Shown: positions 13,505 through 38,370 of the stretch, one piece after another
Layout of the letters: the number at the start of each line of letters is the position of its first letter
How positions within the stretch are numbered: the first letter of the stretch is position 1
IMG/VR virus record: IMGVR_UViG_3300025133_000113
Location: 1 to 59,874 of that record
DNA from: a virus
Taxonomy: Duplodnaviria > Caudoviricetes
Strand: one strand, 5' to 3'
Length of the DNA: 59,874 nt
Translations under genes and position numbers: made by a program
Notes under the pieces: generated by a model
What the model saw: the letters and a program-made list of their open reading frames with translations, nothing else
Databases searched by the model: none
What the model was told of the DNA's origin: nothing

Positions 13505-14302
13505 ATGACAGACGAGAGAATTATACTCCCTGTTGGTAAAGCATACCAACGGGTTATTCGTGAACGTAAGGACGAGGAAGAACGAAATTCACCAGATGAA
13601 CCTATCTGGCATGGAATCAACAGAGACATATCAAATGCGGTGGTTAAACCCATCGAACGTAGTTTAGCGAAGGAAATCGTGGAGAAGTATGAATGGTTAG
13701 GTTGTATGCCAGCAATTTGTATGTATTACTTCGGTATCTTCTATGATGATGTCTGTGCTGGTGTGACGGTATTCGGTAAAGAGTATAGTGAAAACCTTGG
13801 GCATTGGGATAAGTACCATTATACTGGTAGGATGTTATTATTGGCTAGGGGTGTCTGCGTTAATTGGGCACACGAACACTCTGGTAGTAAGCTAATTATG
13901 GAGAGTATAAAGCAATTACCACCAGAATATGATGTTATAACGGCAACGATTGACCAAGCGGCAGGGGAAGTTGGTACTATTTATCAAGCGTGTAACTTTG
14001 TTTACACTGGTAGCATGAGAGAATCTAACCCAAATATCAAGAATGTGAAACCTAAGAATAGGTTTGGCGTTAGAATAGCTTGTGATAAATTCCCAAATGG
14101 AAAAATATACGGCTCTAGGTCTATGAGAGCTAAGGTTGGTAGTCAAAAGAAAGAAGATATACTAGCAGCATACCCTGATGCCGAATTCGTACCACAATAC
14201 AATAAGCACAGATACTTCTACTATCGTGGGAGTAAATCAAATAAAAAATTCTTAAAGAAACAAGTGGCTCATATGATTAAGTCATACCCTAAGCGTTCTT
14301 AA
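13505..14302 (+). CDS. Mom-like (GNAT-fold) DNA adenine modification enzyme
   Basis: GEVGTIYQACNFVYTG matches the Mom-family GTIYQA.N..Y.G motif; LARG, KHRYFY. Confidence 0.7.
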   Translation: MTDERIILPVGKAYQRVIRERKDEEERNSPDEPIWHGINRDISNAVVKPIERSLAKEIVEKYEWLGCMPAICMYYFGIFYDDVCAGVTVFGKEYSENLGHWDKYHYTGRMLLLARGVCVNWAHEHSGSKLIMESIKQLPPEYDVITATIDQAAGEVGTIYQACNFVYTGSMRESNPNIKNVKPKNRFGVRIACDKFPNGKIYGSRSMRAKVGSQKKEDILAAYPDAEFVPQYNKHRYFYYRGSKSNKKFLKKQVAHMIKSYPKRS

Positions 14303-14340: not shown

Positions 14341-15078
14341 ATGGACAAGAAAATAATAGCTATAGCAGCGACACTAGTAGTAGTAATGGCAATCATTCTA
14401 GCACAGACGATTTCCAATCGCTATAACATATCACAACTATCCGAAACGGTTAGTTGCCATGACAGCGTATTAGCAGTTATGAACCCAATCCCACATAACT
14501 TCAATCATGTTATGAGGATATTCAGCCATTATAATCCAGAAGTGGATACCAATATTACCACTACGTTCCTAGATGTCGTTAACCATTTCGAATTGGGTAA
14601 TGACACTACGGTATTGGATTGGTTAATTGGGCAGGTTTGCCTTGAGAGTGGTGCCAGACAGTATTACCAGTCAGAACATAAAAAAGCTGGTAAGGTCATC
14701 AGAGGTACTTCAGGTGAGGTGGGTATTACTCAGATAATGCCAGTTACGGCTATAGGGTACCTTAAAAAACATGTTTTAGATGAAACTGAGTTATATGACC
14801 TTGGCGCAACTAACTTCGATTTCGTTCACGAAAAGGGTGGTCATAGGAAGGAAATCATCGAATGGTTAAGTAATCCGACCAATAATATAATATTGTGGGG
14901 ATTGATGACCAGAGATAATCTTCGAGCCAACGGTATGTTGAAGGGTCTTGTTGTGTATAACGCAGGTCAGAGAGGTATGGAGAGGTTTACTAAGCGTAGA
15001 GCGCCAGAGGAACATTCATATATCGTTCACCTCAAAGATACTTTGGGTGACATAAACGAGATGTTAGCTGATTGTTAA
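14341..15078 (+). CDS. membrane-anchored lytic transglycosylase (SLT domain)
   Basis: N-terminal TM; LES catalytic Glu, GITQIMP.TA, NP..NI, YNAG; promoter TTTG-N20-TATATTTA at 14305-14336. Confidence 0.8.
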   Translation: MDKKIIAIAATLVVVMAIILAQTISNRYNISQLSETVSCHDSVLAVMNPIPHNFNHVMRIFSHYNPEVDTNITTTFLDVVNHFELGNDTTVLDWLIGQVCLESGARQYYQSEHKKAGKVIRGTSGEVGITQIMPVTAIGYLKKHVLDETELYDLGATNFDFVHEKGGHRKEIIEWLSNPTNNIILWGLMTRDNLRANGMLKGLVVYNAGQRGMERFTKRRAPEEHSYIVHLKDTLGDINEMLADC

Positions 15079-15986
15079 TGACCTCTTTCGAATGCGTGTA
15101 GTCCGTCATTAACCCTATTCGCACCAGCACGTTCCCAGAACATTCTATTGTTCTCATTGGTAGGTACGTATAACTTATTCATTGTAGGTACTTGTCGGAA
15201 TAACATTGGTATAGCGTCACGGATAATCTTCAAAGGTTTTTCTTCCTCAGCACCACCAATATTCAAGATAGTGGCTTCATCATCGGATGGTGAACCAGAT
15301 ACATTACTGATTTCTATGCCACCTAACGGTCTATCACCATCATAGATGATATAGATAGTGGTTTTAGGGTTTTCATCGGCTATAGATATCTTAGTCGCAG
15401 CCTCATGTATACTTCTACGTATCATTGGGAACGCTTCCTCATCAATTCCAGCAGCATCCATCTTACTGTAGTAGTCAGGTTCATCTATTAGATGGTCTTT
15501 GGCTATTTCTTTAGCTTTAGCATCATCATCAGTGTGTTCCTTTTCATCTTCGGCACCAGCTTTAAGCTCGTCTTTTATTTTATCCACATCAATATCGTGA
15601 TGCTTGGCTATGTCGCCAGTTGATAGGTTGTCAGCTTTACCGCCTTTGATTTTATCTTCGTTCATCGTCTTTGGTTCTCTAATTAATGTATCTTGAAATC
15701 GATAATCTTTATTTCTACCCTTGTTCGGTACGAATCCGAAACGTTTATAGAAAGAGATTAACCTACCTTTCGAGCTACCATATGAGCTTGACGCTGTTAA
15801 CGTCACTATCATATTATTTTTATCCGCATAATCTATGATATCATCCATTATCTTAGTACCATAACCCTCTTCCTTTACACCATCTTTTAGGATTATTGAG
15901 TGTAATCTCAGGTGGTCACCCTTTTCTGAAATGAATAACTCATCCAAAACCTCATCGTACTTAGAGTTTAATATGTCCTCTATCAT
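15075..15986 (-). CDS. GNAT-like / His-Glu motif / GNAT-like modular protein
   Basis: GYGTKIM...LISFYKRFGF; GGKAD...EKEHTDD...EIAKDHL...YYSK; C-terminal FWERAGA; late motif at 15991. Confidence 0.7.
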   Translation of the reverse strand: MIEDILNSKYDEVLDELFISEKGDHLRLHSIILKDGVKEEGYGTKIMDDIIDYADKNNMIVTLTASSSYGSSKGRLISFYKRFGFVPNKGRNKDYRFQDTLIREPKTMNEDKIKGGKADNLSTGDIAKHHDIDVDKIKDELKAGAEDEKEHTDDDAKAKEIAKDHLIDEPDYYSKMDAAGIDEEAFPMIRRSIHEAATKISIADENPKTTIYIIYDGDRPLGGIEISNVSGSPSDDEATILNIGGAEEEKPLKIIRDAIPMLFRQVPTMNKLYVPTNENNRMFWERAGANRVNDGLHAFERGH

Positions 15987-16047: not shown

Positions 16048-18528
16048 TTATTTTTTAACGTAAACCTTACCTTCTTTCTTATCGAAGGAAATGTTCACCG
16101 TATCACCTTCTTTGACGTTCTTCAATAGAATCTCATCAGCAATTAGGTCACCAACATGGACTTGTATCGCTCTAGCCAACGGTCTGGCACCATATTCATC
16201 ATGGTAACCTTCATCAGCTAGGAACTCAATAGCACCTTTATCTAATTTGATATCATATCCTTTGTCAATCAATCTAGCTTTCAATGCCGCCAGTTCGATA
16301 TGGATAATCTTATGTATATCAGCTACCTTCAATTGGTTGAAGATGATGCAATCGTCAATACGGTTAAGGAATTCAGGAGCAAACTTCTTCTTAAGTGCTT
16401 TCTCAATGATACCTCTATGCTTTGCATCCTTGTTCGCCAAGGTATGTGTGGTCTTAAATCCTAATCCGTCACCAAATGCGCTCAATTGCTTCACACCCAC
16501 GTTGGATGTTAGTACGATAAGACAGTTCTTGAAGTCTACTTTTCTACCCAGACCATCAGTCAACTGACCTTCATCCAGTAATTGTAGTAGGATGTTGAAT
16601 ACGTCAGGGTGCGCTTTCTCAATCTCATCGAATAAGATAACAGAGTAAGGCTTTCTACGGACTTTCTCGGTCAATTGACCACCTTGTTCGTACCCTACAT
16701 AACCTGGAGGGGCACCTACTAATCGTGATACTGTATACTTCTCCATGTACTCACTCATATCCATTCTAATCATGGCATCTGAGTCACCAAACATTTGTAT
16801 TGCGAGTTGCTTTGCCAGTTCAGTTTTACCAACACCAGTAGGACCCAAGAATATGAAGGAACCGATTGGTTTGCTCTCGTCCTTGATTCCAAGTCTGTTA
16901 CGTTTGATTGCTTTGGTCACCTTATCGATGGCATCATCTTGCCCAATAATTGCTTTCTTAAGCACTTTGTGCATACCCACCAATCGTTTGTTCTCTTGGC
17001 TTGATACTTTACTTACAGGAATACCAGTCATATTGGCTACAACCTCACATATTTCTTCCACACCGACTTTGGTTCGCTTCTCATCCAGAGATTTCTCCCA
17101 TTCTTCGCTTGCTTTGGCTAGTTCCTTCTCAATCTTAACACCTTCATCTCTCAGCTTTGCCGCTTCCTCATAACGTGATTGATTAACCACTATTTCCTTT
17201 TCACGGTCTACTTTGTTTCTAGCTTCTTCCAGACCTTTAATGCGTTCTGGTTTAACTTGGGTTAGGTTTGTGGCTGCACCAGCCTCATCCATAACGTCAA
17301 TAGCCTTATCAGGCATCGCTCGGTCACTTATATATCTGTCAGACATCTTAACACATTCTTCAATGGCTTCGTCCGTATAAAGAACCTTGTGATGTTCTTC
17401 GTATTTACCTTTAATGTTGCTTAGAATCGTGGTTGTTTCTTCCAAGGTTGGTTCTTCAACCAGTACTTGTTGGAATCTACGTGTTAATGCCCCATCTTTT
17501 TCGATATTCTCTCTGAATTCGTCAAGTGTGGTGGCACCAATAATCTGTAGTTCACCGTTAGCTAATGCAGGTTTGAAGATATTAGATGCATCCAACGCTC
17601 CTGTTGCATTACCAGCACCCACCATTGTGTGTAACTCGTCAATAAACAGGATGACATTAGGTGATAACTTCAATTCATCCATTATAGTCTTAATACGTTC
17701 TTCGAATTGACCTCTATATTTAGTTCCAGCTACTAGAGATGCAAGGTTAAGAGAATATATCTTCTTATCTTTTATTACCCTTGGGGCTTTATTCTTTTGA
17801 ATTAATAAGGCTAACCCTTCAATGATAGATGTCTTACCAACTCCTGGTTCCCCAATAAGAACTGGGTTATTTTTTTTACGTCTGGATAGAATCATGGATA
17901 CCCGTTTGATTTCCTTTTCTCTACCCACCACAGGGTCTACTTCACCCTTCTTAACCGCTTCAGATATGTCTCTACAATATTTATCTAATTCTGGTGTATG
18001 ATTTTGCCCTTTAGTTAGTGTCCCTGTTCTCTTAGGGCGCTTTGGTCTTCTGCTGCCAGTGTCTTCATAATCTTCTTCACTCTCATCATATCTGCTCATT
18101 ATTATAATAGCTTCTTTATATTCATTGTAATTAACACCAAACTTATTCATTGTTTTGGTGATATCATCTGTTCGTTTCAATATTGCTAGGAATAGGTGAG
18201 CCGTATCTATGGTGGTTTCACCTAGGTTCACTGACTCTGCTTCTAATTTTTTAAATACGCTTTGTACCGCATTGGAATACCCTATCGATTTGGTCTCATA
18301 GGGTCTTGGTGTAAGGTCATTTGTGTATACTATCTCGTATAGAGTATCATAAAGTTTGCTGGTATCGACCTTCATGTGGTCTAATACACTTATTGCTCTA
18401 TTATCTCCATCCAATAATGTACTAAGTATGATGTGACCTAATTGCACATCATACCCATTGTGTTCCTTAACACCTCTTTTAGCATCCGTAAGGATTGCCT
18501 TTAATTTAGGTTCAACCTCTCTATCCAT
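16048..18528 (-). CDS. clpC: ClpC-type AAA+ chaperone / protease ATPase subunit
   Basis: Clp-N repeats; GEPGVGKT and GPTGVGKT Walker A; FIDELH, FDEIEKAH; UVR-type YEEAAKLRD; LGF loop. Confidence 0.92.
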   Translation of the reverse strand: MDREVEPKLKAILTDAKRGVKEHNGYDVQLGHIILSTLLDGDNRAISVLDHMKVDTSKLYDTLYEIVYTNDLTPRPYETKSIGYSNAVQSVFKKLEAESVNLGETTIDTAHLFLAILKRTDDITKTMNKFGVNYNEYKEAIIIMSRYDESEEDYEDTGSRRPKRPKRTGTLTKGQNHTPELDKYCRDISEAVKKGEVDPVVGREKEIKRVSMILSRRKKNNPVLIGEPGVGKTSIIEGLALLIQKNKAPRVIKDKKIYSLNLASLVAGTKYRGQFEERIKTIMDELKLSPNVILFIDELHTMVGAGNATGALDASNIFKPALANGELQIIGATTLDEFRENIEKDGALTRRFQQVLVEEPTLEETTTILSNIKGKYEEHHKVLYTDEAIEECVKMSDRYISDRAMPDKAIDVMDEAGAATNLTQVKPERIKGLEEARNKVDREKEIVVNQSRYEEAAKLRDEGVKIEKELAKASEEWEKSLDEKRTKVGVEEICEVVANMTGIPVSKVSSQENKRLVGMHKVLKKAIIGQDDAIDKVTKAIKRNRLGIKDESKPIGSFIFLGPTGVGKTELAKQLAIQMFGDSDAMIRMDMSEYMEKYTVSRLVGAPPGYVGYEQGGQLTEKVRRKPYSVILFDEIEKAHPDVFNILLQLLDEGQLTDGLGRKVDFKNCLIVLTSNVGVKQLSAFGDGLGFKTTHTLANKDAKHRGIIEKALKKKFAPEFLNRIDDCIIFNQLKVADIHKIIHIELAALKARLIDKGYDIKLDKGAIEFLADEGYHDEYGARPLARAIQVHVGDLIADEILLKNVKEGDTVNISFDKKEGKVYVKK

Positions 18529-23820: not shown

Positions 23821-24684
23821 ATGACAAAGAAGAGCAACATAATCAATCCAAACCAACCGAAAGGTCGTGAAATCAATGAAAGAATCATTGAATTGATGGG
23901 TCAAACATTAATCAAAGAGAACGTTGACCGTTCCGTAATTGAATTAACGAAGACAGGTCCTGATGGAAAAGTCTACGGTATTGTACGTGAGAACCACGAA
24001 TGGTACATTAAGACTGCTGAAGCTTCTGACACTCTTACTAGAAATAGTTTTGAGTATATGGGAGGTTTACAGAACAAGAAGTCTCACGCTTACCCATCAT
24101 ACGCTAAAGCTATCAAGCATCTTAACCAAAAGTTCCAGTCATTGAACGAATCGTTAGGTGTTAAGAGTGGCATCAACGTATTCCGTAATGACCATCTATT
24201 GGCAGAGGAAAAGTCTGAAGCTAAGGTTAATGCGCAAGAATTCGTACAAGATAAGAAAGGTGAGGAATTGGATAGTGAAGGTACACCTATTGATAAAGAA
24301 AATAGTGGTTCTAACACTGTTGGTACCAATGGTAAGAAGCAAGTTAAGAATGATAAGACTGACGTGAAAGCTTCGGATATGGTGGATATGTCTGAAAACG
24401 AACTTAAGATTGACGCAATGATTGCTGGTGAAGAAGAAGGTGACGTTGTTGAGGAATCTCAATTAGGTGCCGCATCATTCTTCCAAGGTGACGATATAAT
24501 CCTTAACATGAACGACACACTAAGTATTAGTCGTGGTGTTGAGGTATTGGATGACGCAATTGATAACGCAACTGGTGAGAAGAAGATTACCGAAATGCAA
24601 GCGGCTGAAGATATCCTTAAAGGATTGAGTAAAGACGAAGTAATTTCCATTCTGGAAAAAGTTACTGGTAAAAAAAAAAGTTAA
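23821..24684 (+). CDS. head-module protein, N-terminal part of probable frameshift fusion
   Basis: GPDGKVYGIVRENHEWYIK...YMGG..NK....Y.SYAKA.K.LN; ends in an A10 run then AGT TAA. Confidence 0.8.
   Translation: MTKKSNIINPNQPKGREINERIIELMGQTLIKENVDRSVIELTKTGPDGKVYGIVRENHEWYIKTAEASDTLTRNSFEYMGGLQNKKSHAYPSYAKAIKHLNQKFQSLNESLGVKSGINVFRNDHLLAEEKSEAKVNAQEFVQDKKGEELDSEGTPIDKENSGSNTVGTNGKKQVKNDKTDVKASDMVDMSENELKIDAMIAGEEEGDVVEESQLGAASFFQGDDIILNMNDTLSISRGVEVLDDAIDNATGEKKITEMQAAEDILKGLSKDEVISILEKVTGKKKS
24670..24679 (+). other. A10 slippery site (candidate -1 frameshift or transcriptional slippage)
   Basis: The -1 frame opens after TAA 24669-71 and the 0 frame closes at TAA 24682-84, so their overlap is essentially the A run. 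Confidence 0.7.
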
Positions 24685-25913
24685 AGGAAACTAAATACAA
24701 GTTAAAACTTGATAACCCTAACCCTGCACCAGCACCTGAATTAGGCGCTGATGATGGTGGTTTCGGTGGTGACGATGGTGGTTTCGGTGGTGACGATGGT
24801 GGTTTCGGTGACGAGCCTGAAATGGGTGGTGACGATAAACCATATGATGAAGAACCATTCGATGCTGACGTTGAAGCTGACGAAGCGTCAGACCCAAAGA
24901 AGTATATCCAACAATTGTCTGGAAAGCTGGGTCAATCCCTAAGAAAGTATGAAAAGGAAATGGGACAACCCGACCTAGAGTTGGAGAAGTTCGCAATTAA
25001 CTCCGTTGTATCTGCATCTAATACCGCAGAGATGGACGAGGAAGACCAAAAGGATATTATCGATAAGATTAAGTCTAGTGGGCTTGAGAATGATATCGCT
25101 GAACCAGACGCTGAAGACGCTGAAGTGGATGCTGATGCTGTTGGTGCAGAGTTACCTGAACCAGAAGGTGAAGAGTTTGGTGATGAGCCTGAGTTGGGTG
25201 AAGTTGCTATAATGGAATTAGGTGGAGGACCACCAGAAGATAGGGAATATGATGCGATGCAGACATATCATGACAGACAAGCTAATGCTGGTACAAAAAG
25301 TAACTACCACGTTAGTGTAGACAAAAAAGGGAACTTCAAAGTGGGGGAACCTGAAAAGAGATTCCCAAGTGGTAAAATTGTTAATGGTGAGAGGGTTTCA
25401 GATGATAAGTGGGGTAAAACCGAGCAAGTGTCAGAAGAAATTAGTATATTCGAGCAAAGACTTAGAAGTAAGTTGAATGAGAACCTTAAGTACCCTACCA
25501 GAGAGGTAAGAAGTGAACGTGGTTATTTAGGTGTTACAGTATGGGGTGATAGTGGAAGCGTATCGTTGGATATTTACTCCAAGCAGAATAACCCATATGG
25601 TGGTTCACCATGGAGTAAGATTCAATCTGGTGGTGGAGTTAGACCTGAAGAATTAACTAAAGAGTACATAATGCGTGAAGTAGGTGCAAGATATAAGAAC
25701 CCTGAGAGTTTTGTGGGGGAAATTGATGAGGTGTTGAGTAAATTGAATGATGGTTACGAACAAATGATGCAAGATATGAATCCAGAAATAGCAGAACCAG
25801 AAGTAAAACCTAAGAGAAAAGAGGAACAAGCACCTAAGAGAGTTAGGGAAACCGACCTACCATATAGGAAACCTGTGAGGGAAACTAAGACTAAACCAAA
25901 AGCGACAATATGA
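24672..25913 (+). CDS. acidic head-module protein, C-terminal part of probable fusion
   Basis: Frame is open 50 codons upstream of the first ATG (24822) with no ATG/GTG/TTG; KYIQQLSGKLGQSLR. Confidence 0.75.
   Translation, partial: KKKLKETKYKLKLDNPNPAPAPELGADDGGFGGDDGGFGGDDGGFGDEPEMGGDDKPYDEEPFDADVEADEASDPKKYIQQLSGKLGQSLRKYEKEMGQPDLELEKFAINSVVSASNTAEMDEEDQKDIIDKIKSSGLENDIAEPDAEDAEVDADAVGAELPEPEGEEFGDEPELGEVAIMELGGGPPEDREYDAMQTYHDRQANAGTKSNYHVSVDKKGNFKVGEPEKRFPSGKIVNGERVSDDKWGKTEQVSEEISIFEQRLRSKLNENLKYPTREVRSERGYLGVTVWGDSGSVSLDIYSKQNNPYGGSPWSKIQSGGGVRPEELTKEYIMREVGARYKNPESFVGEIDEVLSKLNDGYEQMMQDMNPEIAEPEVKPKRKEEQAPKRVRETDLPYRKPVRETKTKPKATI
24753..24810 (+). repeat. 21-nt tandem coding repeat (DGGFGGD, about 2.8 copies)
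   Basis: GATGGTGGTTTCGGTGGTGAC tandem. Confidence 0.9.
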
Positions 25914-28052: not shown

Positions 28053-29876
28053 ATGTTAACAGCAGCCGAAATATTAGAAGAATACACGCAGTGTCTATTA
28101 GACCCGAAGTATGTCATTTCAACATACTTCAAAACTTTTGATAAGACACAAGAAGGGTTTGTACCGTTCGACCTATTCCCCAAACAAAGAGATATCGTTG
28201 ATGACTATAGAAAGCATCGATTCAATCTAGTAGCCAAGCCTAGACAGGCTGGTATATCCACTACAACACAAGCATATGCAGCCACCCTTGTCGGGTTTGC
28301 TGACGATAAGAATCCAGAGTGTATCGTGGTTGTCGCTAACAAACTGAAGTTAGCTAAGAAATTCACTAAAGGTATAAAGAACTTTGTTAATCAACTTCCA
28401 AGATGGGTGTGGGGTGACGAATATTACGGCACAAAAGAGAAGGAAGAAAAAGACATCTTCGTAACGGAGAATCAAGAAGAGATGGAACTGGTCAATGGTT
28501 GTTTAATCGTGGCTGTTGCGACATCTGAGGATGCTTTGCGTGGTTACACGCCTACACTACTTATCATGGATGAGGCTGCGTTCATCGAAAGGGGTGATGA
28601 ACTATTTGCTGCTGCCCTTACCTCACTTGGTACTGGTGGAAAGGCAACTCTTATTTCAACACCTAAAGGACAAGACCCACTATACTACGAGACTTACGAC
28701 CAAGCTAAGAAAGGTGAGAACGACTTCAATGTAATTGAGATGCGTTGGTATGAGGATTTGCGATATAATAAAGACCTCAGATGGTACAAATACTTAGATG
28801 ATGAAGAACTTGAAAAAGAGTGGTTAGAAGAATACGAATTCACCTTCGAATCATACGATAAAAAACTAAGGGCTGGCTATAAACCTACATCTTCATGGTA
28901 TGAGGAAATGTGTAGAGCGATGAATAACGATAAGCGTAGGATAGCTCAAGAGCTTGATGTATCATTCCTTGGTTCAGGTGGTAACGTAATTGATGATAAA
29001 TACATTAATCACCACGAATTGCACAACGTGTGTGAACCTAAGTGGAAAGCTGGTAAAGGTAACGAGATTTGGATATGGGAGAAACCCGTTGAGGGTCACG
29101 AATATATTCTAGCTTCAGACGTATCCAGAGGTGATGGGGAAGACTCATCTACATTCACCATCATAGATGTTACAACCATGGAGCAAGTGGTTGAATACAT
29201 AGGTAAACTACCACCAGATAAGTTAGCCGACATCCTATGGGAATATGGTATATTATATAACGCATTATTAGTAGTGGATATTACAGGTGGTATGGGTGTC
29301 ACGACAACTTTGAAGTTGAAGGAGATGAAATACCCTCACTTATATTACGAGCGAAGAGGTGATAAACTATTGAAACCTAGGAAGGAAGATAATAAGTATA
29401 AACCTAAGATTGAAACTCCTGGTTATCAGGTAGGTTCAGACAGGGTTGCTTTGGTTAGTAATCTTGAGAGGATGGTACGATTGAATTGTGATGAAGGTAT
29501 CAATAAAGGTATCAAGGTTCGGTCAAGCAGAACGATTAGCGAATTCCACACATTCATATACAAGAACGGACGTGCTGACCACCAAGAGGGTAAGCATGAT
29601 GACCTTATAATGGCATTGGGTATGGCGTTATTCATATTGGAGTTCTCCTTCAGTAAGTTAAAGTCATTGAAGACAAAGACAAAGACAATGCTTAATAGTT
29701 GGATAGTCAATAGTAGTGATACGATAGAACCACACTTAGAAAGTGGTAGTGGGTTTGTTGATAAAGCCAACAGGCGTAAGAAGGCTCAACCTAAACCTAA
29801 ATTTGATGCTACGACAGCTAGAAATATGCAAGACCCTTCGGGTCAATATTTATGGTTGTTCAGTGGCACTAAGTAA
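28053..29876 (+). CDS. gp17: terminase large subunit (T4 gp17-like)
   Basis: LFPKQ, KPRQAGISTT, LLIMDEAAF Walker B, ISTPKG, QEL, DVSRGDGEDSS, HDDLIMA. Confidence 0.95.
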   Translation: MLTAAEILEEYTQCLLDPKYVISTYFKTFDKTQEGFVPFDLFPKQRDIVDDYRKHRFNLVAKPRQAGISTTTQAYAATLVGFADDKNPECIVVVANKLKLAKKFTKGIKNFVNQLPRWVWGDEYYGTKEKEEKDIFVTENQEEMELVNGCLIVAVATSEDALRGYTPTLLIMDEAAFIERGDELFAAALTSLGTGGKATLISTPKGQDPLYYETYDQAKKGENDFNVIEMRWYEDLRYNKDLRWYKYLDDEELEKEWLEEYEFTFESYDKKLRAGYKPTSSWYEEMCRAMNNDKRRIAQELDVSFLGSGGNVIDDKYINHHELHNVCEPKWKAGKGNEIWIWEKPVEGHEYILASDVSRGDGEDSSTFTIIDVTTMEQVVEYIGKLPPDKLADILWEYGILYNALLVVDITGGMGVTTTLKLKEMKYPHLYYERRGDKLLKPRKEDNKYKPKIETPGYQVGSDRVALVSNLERMVRLNCDEGINKGIKVRSSRTISEFHTFIYKNGRADHQEGKHDDLIMALGMALFILEFSFSKLKSLKTKTKTMLNSWIVNSSDTIEPHLESGSGFVDKANRRKKAQPKPKFDATTARNMQDPSGQYLWLFSGTK

Positions 29877-30147: not shown

Positions 30148-32265
30148 ATGGCTGACAAGAAAAAAGATTTAACAATATTTCAAAAGTTGAATAGGATTTT
30201 AACTCCTGATGGAATTAATCCCAACTTAGAACTGAGTAATAAGTATTCACTAGGGAGCGATGTCCTATTGAAGACTGACAATAAGCAAGAATACGAGCAG
30301 CAAAAGCTACAAGCGAAGCAAAGTAAGTATTTAAGTAACATGTGGGGTAAGGTTGAGGACAACCTATTCCAACAAGCCATACAGTATGAGATGACCAGAA
30401 TCGGGGCTTACTCCGATTTTGAGAACATGGAATTCTACCCAGAACTTGCAGCCACCCTTGATATCATGATGGAGGAATCTACCACCGTAAATGATAAAGG
30501 TAGGGTACTTAATATCTATTCAGATAGTCCACGTATTAGAGGTATTCTGGAAGACCTATTTTTCAATAGATTGGATATACATACCGTATTACCTATGTGG
30601 GTGCGTAACACTTGCAAGTATGGTGATAACTTCGTATATCTTAATACAAGTGACAAATATGGTATCACTGGTGCCAAGCAAATGCCTAACTTCGAAATGG
30701 AGAGGCGTGAGGGTGGTGTATACGACACTATTACAGCTAAATTGAATAGTACATCTGAAAATGGTAAAGATAGGTCAGGTGAGAGCAAAGAAGAACGTGT
30801 ACGTTTCTTTTGGAGAGGTCGAGACTTAGAGTTTGAGTCATGGCAAGTAGCCCACTTCAGATTACTTGGTGATGACAGGCGATTACCTTATGGTACGAGC
30901 GTGTTAGAGAAGTCTAGAAGGATTTGGAAACAACTATTGTTATCTGAGGATGCAATGCTTGTATATCGTGTTACACGAGCGCCAGAGCGTAGAGTGTTCA
31001 AGATTTATGTTGGTAACATAGATGATGAGGATGTACAACCATACGTAAACGAGATTGCCAATCGATTTAAGAGAGCTAACGTAATTGACCCTAACACTGG
31101 GCAAGTAGACCTTAGATACAACCAATTGGCGAATGACCAAGACTTTTTCATCCCAGTAAGAGATGAAAATGCTCCTACCCCAATCGACACACTTCAGGGT
31201 GCTAGTAACCTAGACCAGATTGCGGATATCGAGTATCTACAACGTAAGTTATTTACTGCATTGAGGGTACCTAAGTCTTTCTTAGGATTTGAAGAGTCTC
31301 AGGGTGAGGGTAAGAACTTAGCATTGATGGATGTAAGGTTTGCTAGAACAATTAATAGAATACAACAAGCACTATTACAAGAGCTTAATAAGATTGCCAT
31401 AATACACTTGGTGTTACTAGGTTTTGAGGATGACTTGAACAGCTTCACCATTACAATGAATAACCCATCTACACAAGCAGAGATGCTTAGGATAGAGCAC
31501 TTACAGGCTAAGTTTACAGCTATACAAGCTGCTGTTGCCGATGCTGGTAATGGGTTTGGAATTATGTCAATGACAAAAGCCAAGAGAGATATACTTGGAT
31601 GGAGTGATGCTGAGATTAAGCAAGACCTTCTTGAACAACGTATGGAGAAAGCGGCTGCTGCTGAATTGGAGAATACTTCCAATGTCATTAAGAACACAGG
31701 CTTCTTCGATAAGGTTGATAAACTATACGGTGACATTGAAGTCGCCAGAGGTGGTGGTGCGGCTGAAGAAGGTGGTGAAGATGGAGGTCCTACTGGTGGT
31801 GGAGGTGGTGGCTTCGGTGGTGGTGGTATCGGTGGTGACGATATAGACTTTGGAGACGAAGAAGGTGGAGACGAAGAAGGTGGAGACTTCGGAGATGATG
31901 CTGGTGGAGAAGGATTTGGTGATGATGCTGATGCTGGTGGAGATGACTTAGGTGGTGATGATGCTGGTGGTGATGATGCCGCAGCAGAACCTGCTGGCGA
32001 ATTAGGTGAGATGCTTAAGATTGGTCAAAGAATCTTATCTGAGGAAAAACTGATATTGGTAGACAAGTTAACCAAGAGAAAGATGCGTCACAAGGAAATC
32101 CACATGAACAGGTTAATGGAGAGTATCACCAAAAGTGATATGGACGATGCTGTTAATGAAAACAGGATTAGTCTAACTGACAAAGGTATGCGTATAAACC
32201 AAAATGTTGATGATATGTTGAAAGATATTAACGACAGAATTGAGGAAGCGGATAGTGACGAATAA
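30148..32265 (+). CDS. gp20: portal protein (T4 gp20-like) with Gly/Asp-rich tail
   Basis: PYGTSVLE...EDAMLVYRVTRAPERRVF...DIEYLQRKLFTALRVPKSFL...DVRFARTINRIQ. Confidence 0.95.
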   Translation: MADKKKDLTIFQKLNRILTPDGINPNLELSNKYSLGSDVLLKTDNKQEYEQQKLQAKQSKYLSNMWGKVEDNLFQQAIQYEMTRIGAYSDFENMEFYPELAATLDIMMEESTTVNDKGRVLNIYSDSPRIRGILEDLFFNRLDIHTVLPMWVRNTCKYGDNFVYLNTSDKYGITGAKQMPNFEMERREGGVYDTITAKLNSTSENGKDRSGESKEERVRFFWRGRDLEFESWQVAHFRLLGDDRRLPYGTSVLEKSRRIWKQLLLSEDAMLVYRVTRAPERRVFKIYVGNIDDEDVQPYVNEIANRFKRANVIDPNTGQVDLRYNQLANDQDFFIPVRDENAPTPIDTLQGASNLDQIADIEYLQRKLFTALRVPKSFLGFEESQGEGKNLALMDVRFARTINRIQQALLQELNKIAIIHLVLLGFEDDLNSFTITMNNPSTQAEMLRIEHLQAKFTAIQAAVADAGNGFGIMSMTKAKRDILGWSDAEIKQDLLEQRMEKAAAAELENTSNVIKNTGFFDKVDKLYGDIEVARGGGAAEEGGEDGGPTGGGGGGFGGGGIGGDDIDFGDEEGGDEEGGDFGDDAGGEGFGDDADAGGDDLGGDDAGGDDAAAEPAGELGEMLKIGQRILSEEKLILVDKLTKRKMRHKEIHMNRLMESITKSDMDDAVNENRISLTDKGMRINQNVDDMLKDINDRIEEADSDE

Positions 32266-34005: not shown

Positions 34006-34704
34006 ATGCTGGAAATTAAGACATTACGGGCTGGGGAAACTGGCACAGGTTACCTAATTGAGCAAGATGCTGGTTATATCTCACCTACGGATGAGAGGAA
34101 CCAATCATTCATCAATGAGGTTAAGAAGTTAGGTGGTGGTGGTGTTTCTATACTTGAACCATTAAAGGTAGTTGCAGTATTACAGAAATACGGTGTTGAA
34201 AATCGTAACGGTAGAATCTACCCAGAACATATCCTTAGAGCACAAGCCGAGGAATATGATAAATTAGTACAAGACAATCGCGCACTTGGGGAACTAGACC
34301 ACCCAGAATCATCAATTATTTCAGGAAAAGAAGTATCTCACAATATCACTAAGATATGGTGGGAAGGAGCCACCCTTATGGGAGAGCTTGACATTATAAT
34401 GAGTCCAGGTTATGTAAACTTAGGTATCATTTCATGTGAAGGTGATAAGGTTGCTAATTTCTTAAGACGTGGAATTAAAATCGGTGTATCTTCAAGAGGT
34501 GTAGGTTCAGTTGAGGACGTAAATGGTGTTCAATTAGTACAAGATGATTTCGAATTAATATGCTGGGATGTGGTCACAAACCCATCAACTCCAGGTTCTT
34601 GGATATTCCAAAACAATAAGGAAGCAGGCGCCTTTAAAGAGAGCGTTGAAGAGAAGAAGCCTACTGGTTTAAGCTCAGGTTTAGATTCATTCCTATTGGG
34701 ATAA
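34006..34704 (+). CDS. gp21: prohead protease (T4 gp21-like)
   Basis: NRNGRIYP, ALGELDHP, VSH, GVSSRGVGS, DVVTNPS. Confidence 0.95.
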   Translation: MLEIKTLRAGETGTGYLIEQDAGYISPTDERNQSFINEVKKLGGGGVSILEPLKVVAVLQKYGVENRNGRIYPEHILRAQAEEYDKLVQDNRALGELDHPESSIISGKEVSHNITKIWWEGATLMGELDIIMSPGYVNLGIISCEGDKVANFLRRGIKIGVSSRGVGSVEDVNGVQLVQDDFELICWDVVTNPSTPGSWIFQNNKEAGAFKESVEEKKPTGLSSGLDSFLLG

Positions 34705-36564: not shown

Positions 36565-38370
36565 ATGTCACACTTATTAAATACAGGTACAGTCGGAAAC
36601 ATCGGACTAAACCACATGAAAGACGTGAGAAAGAAAGTACAAGATAAATGGGATTCCACTGGTTTCCTTGCTGGATTGGAAGGACACATTAAGGAGAATA
36701 TGGCTCAGTTGTACGAGAACCAAGCTGGTAGCTTGATTACCGAATCAACTAATGCAACATCTTCAGGTTCTTTTGAGACTGTAGTTTTCCCTATCGTAAG
36801 AAGGGTATTCTCAAAATTGCTAGCGAATGATATCGTTAGTGTACAAGCGATGAACTTACCAATTGGTAAATTGTTCTTCTTTATACCACAAACATCTAGC
36901 CGTGTTGACGCTGCTAACCAGCCTGGTAGTAACTATAATGGTGAAGCAATTGTTCCAGGAAGCCAATTCTCTGCACATACATCTATGGCAGTAGACGGAT
37001 TACCTGATTGTGTAAATGCTGTTGCAGGTTGTGCTGTTACACCAATGATGGGTAAAAACCTATATGACCTTTTCTACAACGATGGTCTTTTTGATAACTC
37101 AAAAGGTACGTTGACTATTAGAGTAGGTACATTGTCTGCCGTTTTGCTTGATGCAAACGGAGATTTCTCTAATACTGTTGGTGCATTGCCAGCAGCTACT
37201 GACGGAACTGTAAGAGAAGCGATTATTCGTGTATCTGGTTTCGCGGCAAACCCAGACCTAGATAAAGGTCGATTGACTGGTCCTGATGGACACCCAATGG
37301 ACACTGAGTCATTCTTGGCGTCACTTACTGTTATTAACAATGGTGTTGCAATTCTTGACCCAGATGCTGACCCAATTATTGCAAACGGTGGTTCTGTACC
37401 TTTCCGAGTGGTAACACAAAGATATGGTAGTGGTATCGTAGGATATGATAACATTTGTGATGCAAATGGTGATATCTTCTTGGGATGTGATTTAACTCAC
37501 CCTGTAACTGCTGCTGGTACATCAACATTTGATGGATACGTAGGGGCTTCAGGTTTCACAGGATTATCTGCTGCAACTTTCAACGTTGCATGGGCTGAAT
37601 ACGCAAGTCTTGAGTTCGAAACTGAAATGGGAGAAGTAAGCTTCACACTTGATGAGGTTGTTGTTTCTGTTGAAGAAAGAAAATTAAGAGCTACTTGGTC
37701 TCCAGAGCTTGCGCAAGATGTTAGTGCATTCCACAACATTGACGCTGAAGCGGAATTGACTGCGTTACTTTCTGAGCAAATTGCTTCTGAAATTGACCGT
37801 GAAATTCTTAGAGACCTAAGAAAAGTAGGCGCATGGCAATCACGTTGGGATTACACGGGATGGAGAAAGTCAAGTCAAGCATCTAATGCTTACACACAAA
37901 AAGACTGGAACCAAACGTTAATTACTAAGGTTAACCAAATCTCTGCTCAAATTCACAAGTCAACTCTACGTGGTGGTGCAAACTTCATCGTAGTATCGTC
38001 TGAAATTTCAGCAATCTTTGATGACCTAGAGTACTTCCACGTTTCTGACGCAAGTCCAGAGCAAGACCAATATAACATGGGTATCGAGAGAATCGGTTCA
38101 CTAGGAGGACGTTACCAAGTGTATCGTGACCCTTATGCTCCATCTTGGTCAATGATTATCGGTCACAAAGGTAAGTCACTGTTGGATACAGGTTACATCT
38201 ACGCACCATACGTGCCAATGCAACTTACTCCTACAATGTACAACCCGTTCAACTTCGCACCAGTGAAGGGTATCATGACGAGATACGCTAAGAAGTCTGT
38301 TAATAACAGGTTCTACGGTGGAGTTCGTGTGGACGGAGTGCCAACATTCAACATCAACGAATTGAGATAA
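36565..38370 (+). CDS. gp23: major capsid protein (T4 gp23-like)
   Basis: FPIVRRVF, VSVQAM, RKLRATWSPELAQD, DAEAELTALLSEQIASEIDREIL, GYIYAPYVP, MTRY. Confidence 0.97.
   Translation: MSHLLNTGTVGNIGLNHMKDVRKKVQDKWDSTGFLAGLEGHIKENMAQLYENQAGSLITESTNATSSGSFETVVFPIVRRVFSKLLANDIVSVQAMNLPIGKLFFFIPQTSSRVDAANQPGSNYNGEAIVPGSQFSAHTSMAVDGLPDCVNAVAGCAVTPMMGKNLYDLFYNDGLFDNSKGTLTIRVGTLSAVLLDANGDFSNTVGALPAATDGTVREAIIRVSGFAANPDLDKGRLTGPDGHPMDTESFLASLTVINNGVAILDPDADPIIANGGSVPFRVVTQRYGSGIVGYDNICDANGDIFLGCDLTHPVTAAGTSTFDGYVGASGFTGLSAATFNVAWAEYASLEFETEMGEVSFTLDEVVVSVEERKLRATWSPELAQDVSAFHNIDAEAELTALLSEQIASEIDREILRDLRKVGAWQSRWDYTGWRKSSQASNAYTQKDWNQTLITKVNQISAQIHKSTLRGGANFIVVSSEISAIFDDLEYFHVSDASPEQDQYNMGIERIGSLGGRYQVYRDPYAPSWSMIIGHKGKSLLDTGYIYAPYVPMQLTPTMYNPFNFAPVKGIMTRYAKKSVNNRFYGGVRVDGVPTFNINELR

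Follow-up and report, generated by a model that had tools for sequence, protein, structure and literature searches.

The locus and its reading frames

The stretch of DNA analysed here, called the window below, is the IMG/VR phage record IMGVR_UViG_3300025133_000113 at its full length of 59,874 bases. Two open reading frames (ORFs) on its plus strand, ORF1 and ORF2, adjoin at a run of ten adenines (A10), and the comparison with related phages strongly supports a programmed change of frame at this run, through which part of the expression of ORF1 could continue into ORF2. The junction reads ...ACT GGT AAA AAA AAA AGT TAA and comprises the following elements (nt, nucleotides; aa, amino acids).

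23821..24684, plus strand: ORF1, the 0-frame product of 287 aa, ending in ...TGKKKS before its stop (ORF list)
24669-24671, plus strand: TAA stop of the -1 frame, made of the T of GGT and the first two A's (sequence)
24670-24679, plus strand: A10 homopolymer, the proposed slippage or shift site and the sole run of at least 9 in the window (sequence)
24672..24821, plus strand: start-less leader of 50 codons in the -1 frame, encoding KKKLKETKYKLKLDNPNPAPAP... and DDGGFGG repeats (ORF list and translation)
24682-24684, plus strand: TAA stop of the 0 frame, 2 nt past A10 (sequence)
24692-24694, plus strand: TAA stop of the +1 frame, reached after four codons (GTT AAA GGA AAC TAA; sequence)
24749..24810, plus strand: tandem repeat, 21 nt in three copies, encoding the acidic Gly-Phe linker DDGGFGG (repeat search)
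24822..25913, plus strand: ORF2 as a gene caller would place it, 363 aa (ORF list)

The -1 frame is open from 24672 to 25913, and its translation begins with KKKLKETKYKLKLDNPNPAPAPELGADDGGFGG.... Since the first ATG, GTG or TTG beyond the TAA at 24669-24671 is the ATG at 24822 in the ORF list, the 50 codons from 24672 to 24821 contain none of these starts. The coordinates confirm the layout described in the original prediction, in which ORF1 ends at A10 and the -1 frame runs open through 50 start-less codons into the ORF at 24822. The predicted fusion has 286 + 411 = 697 aa, as calculated from the coordinates, and the identical 697-residue protein would be obtained from one A added to the mRNA or from a shift inside the run. 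An mRNA one A shorter would terminate at the +1-frame TAA (24692-24694).

No other A or T run of 9 or more is found in the 59,874 bases, for which base composition predicts about 0.3 of them. The presence of A10 by itself is therefore not beyond chance; its conservation in relatives is.

Two side observations concern the ends of the extension. The portal protein of the window carries a C-terminal extension (31771-31979) with a similar acidic, low-complexity stretch of Gly, Asp and Phe, and its DNA is 75% identical over 73 nt to the leader repeat at 24749-24810. At the far end of ORF2, its stop overlaps the start of a 136-aa ORF at 25910-25913 (ATGA).

Conservation of the run in related loci

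IMG/VR was searched with ORF1, ORF2 and two relatives, which gave loci L001-L101. Those holding both conserved domains on the plus strand were kept, and duplicates (identical first 300 nt) were dropped. The resulting set of 46 unique loci includes the window's own copy (L035). Among the first 34 loci, ORF2 lies in the -1 frame in all 32 that hold both parts; the other two reach the contig end. The complete set is divided as follows.

ORF2 needs a -1 change, run of A10: 42 loci
ORF2 needs a -1 change, run of A11: 1 locus (L009)
ORF2 needs a -1 change, run of A12: 1 locus (L017)
ORF2 in frame with ORF1, run of A11: 2 loci (L037, L038)

An uninterrupted run of A10 to A12 is thus present in 46/46 unique loci, and ORF2 is in the -1 frame in 44/46. 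The same split at an A run in related genomes, which had been proposed as a check of the original prediction, is found in these 44 loci. In a quick tree (131 columns) the split loci are distributed over several well-supported clades. The N-terminal domain of the relatives is 51-76% identical to that of the window.

The first A of the run is the third base of a codon in 42 loci and the first base in four (the window, L001, L005 and L009), and the run is followed by G in 38 loci, by C in seven and by T in one. Where A10 starts at codon position 3 (39 loci), pairwise identity is 39% and 48% in the two 30-nt flanks, against an invariant run. Lysine codons of ORF1 outside the run are AAA in 1211 cases and AAG in 411 of 1622 (25%); AAG never occurs within the run. 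By chance, three consecutive AAA codons would be retained in about 0.42 of lineages. The lysines that the run encodes are not enough to account for its conservation at the nucleotide level.

The surroundings of the run are also constrained. All 44 split loci have a 0-frame stop no more than 9 codons on and a +1-frame stop after 1-7 codons, and in each of them the -1 frame past the run stays open, for 250-931 codons. The 0-frame stop (TAA in 41 loci, TAG in three) is located 1-4 nt past the run in 37/44. A recurrent word, TTAACTGAA (or CTAACTGAA), follows the run in L006, L010, L012, L014, L068 and others. It encodes Leu-Thr-Glu when read in the -1 frame, and the two remaining frames meet TAA and TGA in it, so that one short word shuts both non-productive frames.

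Translation of the leader and ORF2

A motif of the KYKLK[LVI] type is encoded in the -1 frame shortly past the run in 43/44 split loci. It precedes the first ATG in 32/44 and any ATG, GTG or TTG in 31/44. The conserved domain of ORF2 likewise starts ahead of the first ATG in 14/44. Taken over the split loci, this comparison shows a downstream frame that is evidently under protein-level constraint and has no start codon of its own, and on this evidence the leader and ORF2 are translated as an extension of ORF1.

The same facts bear on the simplest alternative, namely two separate genes, with ORF2 starting at the ATG at 24822 or by re-initiation and the open leader being a coincidence. Gene callers do predict a 363-aa protein from 24822 (P0026), and 116 of the 120 top-ranking ORF2 homologues are called as proteins in their own right. 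Against this stand the 50 leader codons without ATG, GTG or TTG, the position of KYKLK and of the ORF2 domain ahead of possible starts, the -1 relation in 44/44 split loci and the existence of single-ORF versions in two clades (described below). We regard two separate genes as highly improbable.

Of the claims made in the original prediction, the production of a 287-aa protein together with a fusion of about 697 aa, by a shift or by slippage at the run, is strongly supported on these comparative grounds; the label of prohead proteins attached to them is unsupported, as discussed with the genome context.

The run in genomic DNA

Whether the genome carries A10 and not A11 was checked in Logan contigs from three DNA runs (X1, X2 and X3) of three studies. 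Such contigs cannot reveal minor variants, and X1 may be the window's own sample. The run at 24670-24679 is spanned without an insertion or deletion by contigs of all three. The X1 contig (record 1) covers 23821-24782 and the X2 contig (record 11) covers 24486-24782, each with 0 differences. The X3 contig (record 16) comes from a strain that has diverged: it has A>C at 24660 and lacks an 18-nt repeat copy at 24779.

A sequencing or assembly artefact would mean that the genome is truly A11 and holds a single ORF of 697 aa. Homopolymers are prone to error, and A11 does occur in the assemblies of some relatives. Nevertheless, A10 is agreed on by contigs from three runs of three studies, one of them from a diverged strain, and 42 further independent assemblies with different flanks hold the same A10 and the same frame relation. 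Next to no credence can be given to an artefact, and the presence of A10, for which a check against A11 had been suggested at the outset, is upheld by the X1-X3 contigs and by the split shared by 44/46 related loci.

Single-frame versions and breadth of the family

A search for length-shifted relatives of ORF1 gave 25 longer proteins. The two parts share a single frame in 18 of the 25, and the junction carries KKK in 16 of the 25. Of the 120 top-ranking ORF2 homologues, four are fused and the remaining 116 are called alone. Two kinds of single-frame version could be followed in DNA.

The first is a clade in which the run is A11 and ORF2 is in frame (L037:1096-1106, L038:1027-1037 and L039:4451-4461, encoding ILKKKRLTE). 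It groups with ten fused proteins (support 100, quick tree). Both alternative frames stop there within 2-3 codons, so slippage in this clade would make the short form instead. In the same clade a small basic ORF (MNNPTVKPKPKV...) is located between the long gene and the 136-aa gene (L037:1800-1920, with equivalents in L038 and L039). It resembles the basic C-terminal tail of ORF2 of the window.

The second is a sister clade, found with P0025 (L102-L137), in which the N-terminal and middle domains known from the split loci are contained in one ORF of 543-727 aa. A run of nine or more A's is absent from it in 21/21 unique loci, drawn from 41 fetched, and these form a single clade in the quick tree. 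The distribution of the run suggests that the split at it arose within the family. The sister clade with its single ORF and the A11 in-frame clade together indicate that the fusion is the functional unit.

The other fused forms with KKK are scattered, and the well-supported branches of the quick tree force at least three changes of state; these forms are known as proteins only, and errors of single assemblies are possible among them. The fused protein P0001 was considered as the product of the L050 phage plus one A and was ruled out, the two being 76% identical. Separately, the fused relatives P0012, P0014, P0017, P0018, P0020 and P0175 end in ...HLKKKLK or ...LKKKDK about 65 residues past the conserved middle domain. 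Such ends could be a second A-run site or a plain C-terminus. A second shift site, suggested by the ...HLKKKLK ends, found no support in the three loci of that clade that were inspected as DNA, which end differently and have no long A run there.

A profile search with ORF1 against 1.84 billion cluster representatives gave 926 matches at E <= 0.001. The best 150 of the 926 are distributed as follows; since the profile was built from split-clade sequences, these top matches are biased towards the split clade.

ORF1 only, ending in KKK plus 0-9 residues: 107
ORF1 only, other ends (many probably cut): 16
fused, KKK present: 9
fused, without KKK: 18

The single-frame versions could also be read as a sign of phase variation at the DNA level or of a decaying gene, in which the long protein is made only from A11 genomes and A10 is an off-state or a pseudogene. 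In-frame forms with A11 do exist (L037-L039), fused proteins with the KKK junction are scattered (16 of the 25 longer proteins and 4 of the 120 near matches), and at least three state changes are needed in the quick tree. On the other side, the split state is the norm, in 44/46 loci and in 107 versus 9 of the best 150 representatives, and the contigs of all three runs are A10. Moreover, ORF2 remains open over its 250-931 codons in 44/44 loci with its invariant residues kept, which requires expression in the A10 state. Phase variation or decay of the gene is considered improbable.

Mechanism of the frame change

The two ORFs would represent one gene read in two ways. Standard reading would lead to the 287-aa protein that ends just past A10, and a fraction of expression would enter the -1 frame at the run and yield the 697-aa protein, composed in order of ORF1 residues 1-286, the start-less leader, the conserved helical domain and the C-terminal domain of ORF2. 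The main cause could be transcriptional slippage that adds one A, to which we assign a probability of about 0.55 on the features of the sequence. A multi-subunit RNA polymerase would slip on the ten template T's and add one A to part of the transcripts. The mRNA with A11 would read GKKKKLKETKYKLKL, and transcripts with other run lengths or with no addition would end at stops a few codons on, in both other frames. We infer the mechanism, the ratio of the products and the need for both of them.

Several properties of the run support slippage. A run shorter than 10 or interrupted by AAG is found in none of the 46 loci, though 7 nt suffices for a ribosomal shift. Run length is maintained in two codon phases and in the in-frame clade, and, as in Thermus dnaX, stops follow immediately in both non-productive frames. 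A passage of PMC5009743 states that bacterial RNA polymerase slips efficiently on runs of 9 A or T and that the hybrid is 9-10 bp long. For E. coli RNA polymerase, slippage is described in a part of PMC6260861 as undetectable below 8 A's, whereas T7 polymerase slips on three.

The alternative is a ribosomal -1 frameshift or ribosome sliding on A_AAA_AAA, in which the mRNA stays A10 and tRNA-Lys re-pairs one base back. Two features of the site suit it directly: the canonical slippery heptamer A_AAA_AAA is available in both observed codon phases, and the 0-frame stop, 1-4 nt past the run in 37/44 loci, adjoins the site and can help a ribosomal shift. Sliding of ribosomes on poly(A) is described in a section of PMC4363877. 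Sequences able to form stimulatory elements give a mixed picture. Shine-Dalgarno-like words occur at -18 to -4 in 17/46 loci against a background of 23%, a modest enrichment, and 17/46 loci fold from the first base past the run, for example GTCTAAA...TTTAGAC in L002, L007 and L008. The 90 nt past the run fold better than shuffled sequences (mean z -2.1; 26/46 below -2), part of this excess being due to GC-rich sequence coding for Pro and Ala further downstream. The first 45 nt, on the other hand, have a mean minimum free energy of -4.5 versus -4.9 kcal/mol for the background of their own genes, with a median rank of 0.46 and 2/46 loci in the lowest decile. Single-sequence folding of the 46 loci, in which pseudoknots were not assessed, found no consistently placed 3' hairpin. 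A ribosomal event is opposed further by the maintenance of at least 10 uninterrupted A's in 46/46 loci and by the behaviour of the PURE system, for which the same section of PMC4363877 gives little sliding product at A9 or A10 and robust product only from A11. The ribosomal mechanism is possible but rather unlikely, and the sequence features lean towards transcriptional slippage.

Besides the slippery heptamer, the adjoining stop, the folding of the 90 nt and the Shine-Dalgarno-like words, further points weigh against slippage as the cause. In a part of PMC6260861, E. coli RNA polymerase is said to favour runs of T over runs of A on the coding strand. Among the listed runs that hold the stretch, none is on record as RNA. 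Both mechanisms give an identical protein sequence. The 44 split loci are related by descent and so their counts are not independent events, and the tree behind the statements on clades is a quick one.

Protein domains and the search for function

ORF1 starts with a conserved N-terminal domain (about residues 1-130), continues through a variable, probably disordered region and ends in helices. Alignment A1 of 42 ORF1 sequences has 29 invariant columns, all within residues 14-124. The AlphaFold2 (AF2) model contains a small alpha/beta N-terminal domain (about 40-115) at a predicted local distance difference test (pLDDT) score of about 80-90, a disordered middle and C-terminal helices, with a mean of 62.8. 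In the ORF2 frame, numbered with its leader as o2ext, a conserved helical domain covers about residues 51-145, and the invariant columns of alignment A2 lie at 62-137. The AF2 model of this frame comprises a helical hairpin at 75-137 and a confident domain at about 270-370 (mean pLDDT 58.8).

Comparison of ORF1 and ORF2 with Pfam, PHROG and NCBIfam gave no family match, and the sequence profile search of the PDB gave 0 matches. Structure searches were similar in outcome. Matches in the ESM Atlas had scores of at most 0.81 and TM (template modelling) values of at most 0.36; Foldseek, run on whole models only and not on single domains, gave no match to the PDB at E <= 0.001. The best VIA Z scores, also for whole models, were 5.7 and 5.8, with no clear fold, and matches in BFVD were uncharacterised phage proteins only. 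The one Pfam match among relatives, TSKS in 2/50 at E 8e-4, was judged to be noise.

The C-terminal parts of the long product vary between relatives. They match only unnamed PHROGs, phrog_7595 in 38/50 relatives and phrog_727 in 14/50. The C-terminal 170-190 residues of P0015 (600-791) match hypothetical proteins of Methylophilales phage Melnitz, Flavobacterium phage immuto and Pelagibacter phage HTVC008M. Among GenBank phages, no DNA match was found for the window and no tblastn match for ORF1, ORF2 or P0025. We read the protein as a modular one, whose N-terminal module is made alone and with an extension.

Genome context

The record that forms the window is estimated by CheckV to be 18% complete and carries T4-like late genes, among them the following.

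28053..29876: large terminase TerL (phrog_2)
30148..32265: portal protein (phrog_213)
34006..34704: prohead protease (phrog_207)
36565..38370: major head protein, MCP (phrog_138)

The TerL of the window shares about 30% identity with the terminases of Microcystis, Flavobacterium and cyanobacterial myophages. The order thyA, 93-aa ORF, ORF1/ORF2, 136-aa ORF, 421-aa ORF and TerL is kept in relatives: within the flanks of the 46 loci the 136-aa ORF (o136) is found in 43/46, the 421-aa ORF (o421) in 31/46 and TerL in 18/46. ORF1/ORF2 is a conserved core gene between thyA and the terminase, portal and head genes in a T4-like marine phage lineage. The genes next to it gave no match to a tape-measure protein. 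The original prediction had assigned both ORFs to the head module as prohead proteins. Neither ORF matches a family or a clear fold, and what speaks for this label is only where they lie, three genes ahead of TerL and near the portal, protease and MCP genes; the label is unsupported.

Three further genes were observed in the window:

13505..14302: Mom-like DNA modification protein
15075..15986, minus strand: acetyltransferase-like ORF
16048..18528, minus strand: ATP-dependent protease-like (Clp-type) ATPase, 826 aa (phrog_4871, E 5e-252)

Novelty and significance

Homopolymer recoding that gives two length variants is an already known kind of event. A literature search for an A10 site in this gene family or lineage, supplements not covered, found no report; the closest parallel from a phage is an isolated remark about a Campylobacter phage methyltransferase in a passage of PMC2853527. 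The wider proposal would be that, in a large uncultured marine T4-like lineage, slippage of RNA polymerase on a fixed A10 acts as a ratio setter, and the N-terminal module is made alone or fused to a second domain with swappable C-terminal modules. Single-A changes would toggle the default (A10 split, A11 fused), and the tract would have arisen in a family with a single-ORF sister clade. This combination of claims is put forward tentatively, at somewhat less than even odds.

If it is true, a late-region gene of a double-stranded DNA phage would hold a site of programmed transcriptional slippage that is deeply conserved and whose origin and reversals can be seen in metagenomes. The unsplit sister clade, the A10 split, the in-frame A11 and the two codon phases could serve as a natural series for the rise and the flip of recoding sites, and the family as a clean test case for distinguishing transcriptional from ribosomal frameshifting in uncultured phages. 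Such rich natural variation should make both mechanism and evolution testable. If the products are needed in a set ratio, the gene would mark an assembly or infection function conserved beside the packaging genes. There is also a consequence for annotation: gene callers split the gene, and 116/120 of the best ORF2 homologues are called with the genuine N-terminus missing, so that a protein widespread among marine phages is mis-annotated across public data.

Comparison with known systems

Programmed transcriptional slippage sites are known in Thermus dnaX, tssM1, mxiE/spa13 and insertion sequence (IS) elements. In Citrobacter rodentium tssM1, an A11 run directly precedes a premature stop, and extra A's in the mRNA give full-length protein beside the truncated one; both forms and their ratio matter, according to a part of PMC4256274. 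The window site, with A10, a stop 2 nt on and a long open alternative frame, resembles tssM1 (and tssM of Yersinia pseudotuberculosis) as far as that part describes it. The tssM1 gene differs in being a bacterial secretion-system gene of known function whose slippage was shown experimentally, whereas the phage gene is known from sequence; the window site is conserved over a far wider and more diverged set of genomes.

In Thermus thermophilus dnaX, tau and gamma are formed by slippage on a run of 9, both non-zero frames contain stops, and a single nucleotide can swap the product that depends on the shift (a section of PMC5009743). The phage locus shares with it a homopolymer of hybrid length, near stops in both non-zero frames and two products with a common N-terminus. 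The reversal has its counterpart too, since A10 split and A11 in frame are both natural here. The long product is the 0-frame product in Thermus dnaX, whereas in the window it needs the shift, and the proteins are unrelated. In E. coli dnaX, a -1 ribosomal shift occurs on A_AAA_AAG with a 5' Shine-Dalgarno sequence and a 3' stem-loop (the same section of PMC5009743). A slippery site of lysine codons and a short and a long product of one gene are common to both. Unlike E. coli dnaX, whose heptamer in that section ends in G, the phage loci have at least 10 A's and a weak enrichment of Shine-Dalgarno-like words, and no placed 3' hairpin is conspicuous in them.

The capsid frameshift of T7 10A/10B yields two products of a phage late gene in a set ratio. 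In phage lambda G/GT, two products in a set ratio are also obtained, the frame being changed shortly before the first ORF ends (a passage of PMC5009743). The position of the frame change near the end of the first ORF of a phage gene is shared by G/GT, 10A/10B and the window. The former two are ribosomal shifts in genes of known role and position. G and GT are small overlapping ORFs directly upstream of the tape-measure gene, whereas the window gene is not next to one; unlike 10A/10B, the window gene is not the MCP, and its 411-aa extension exceeds the first ORF.

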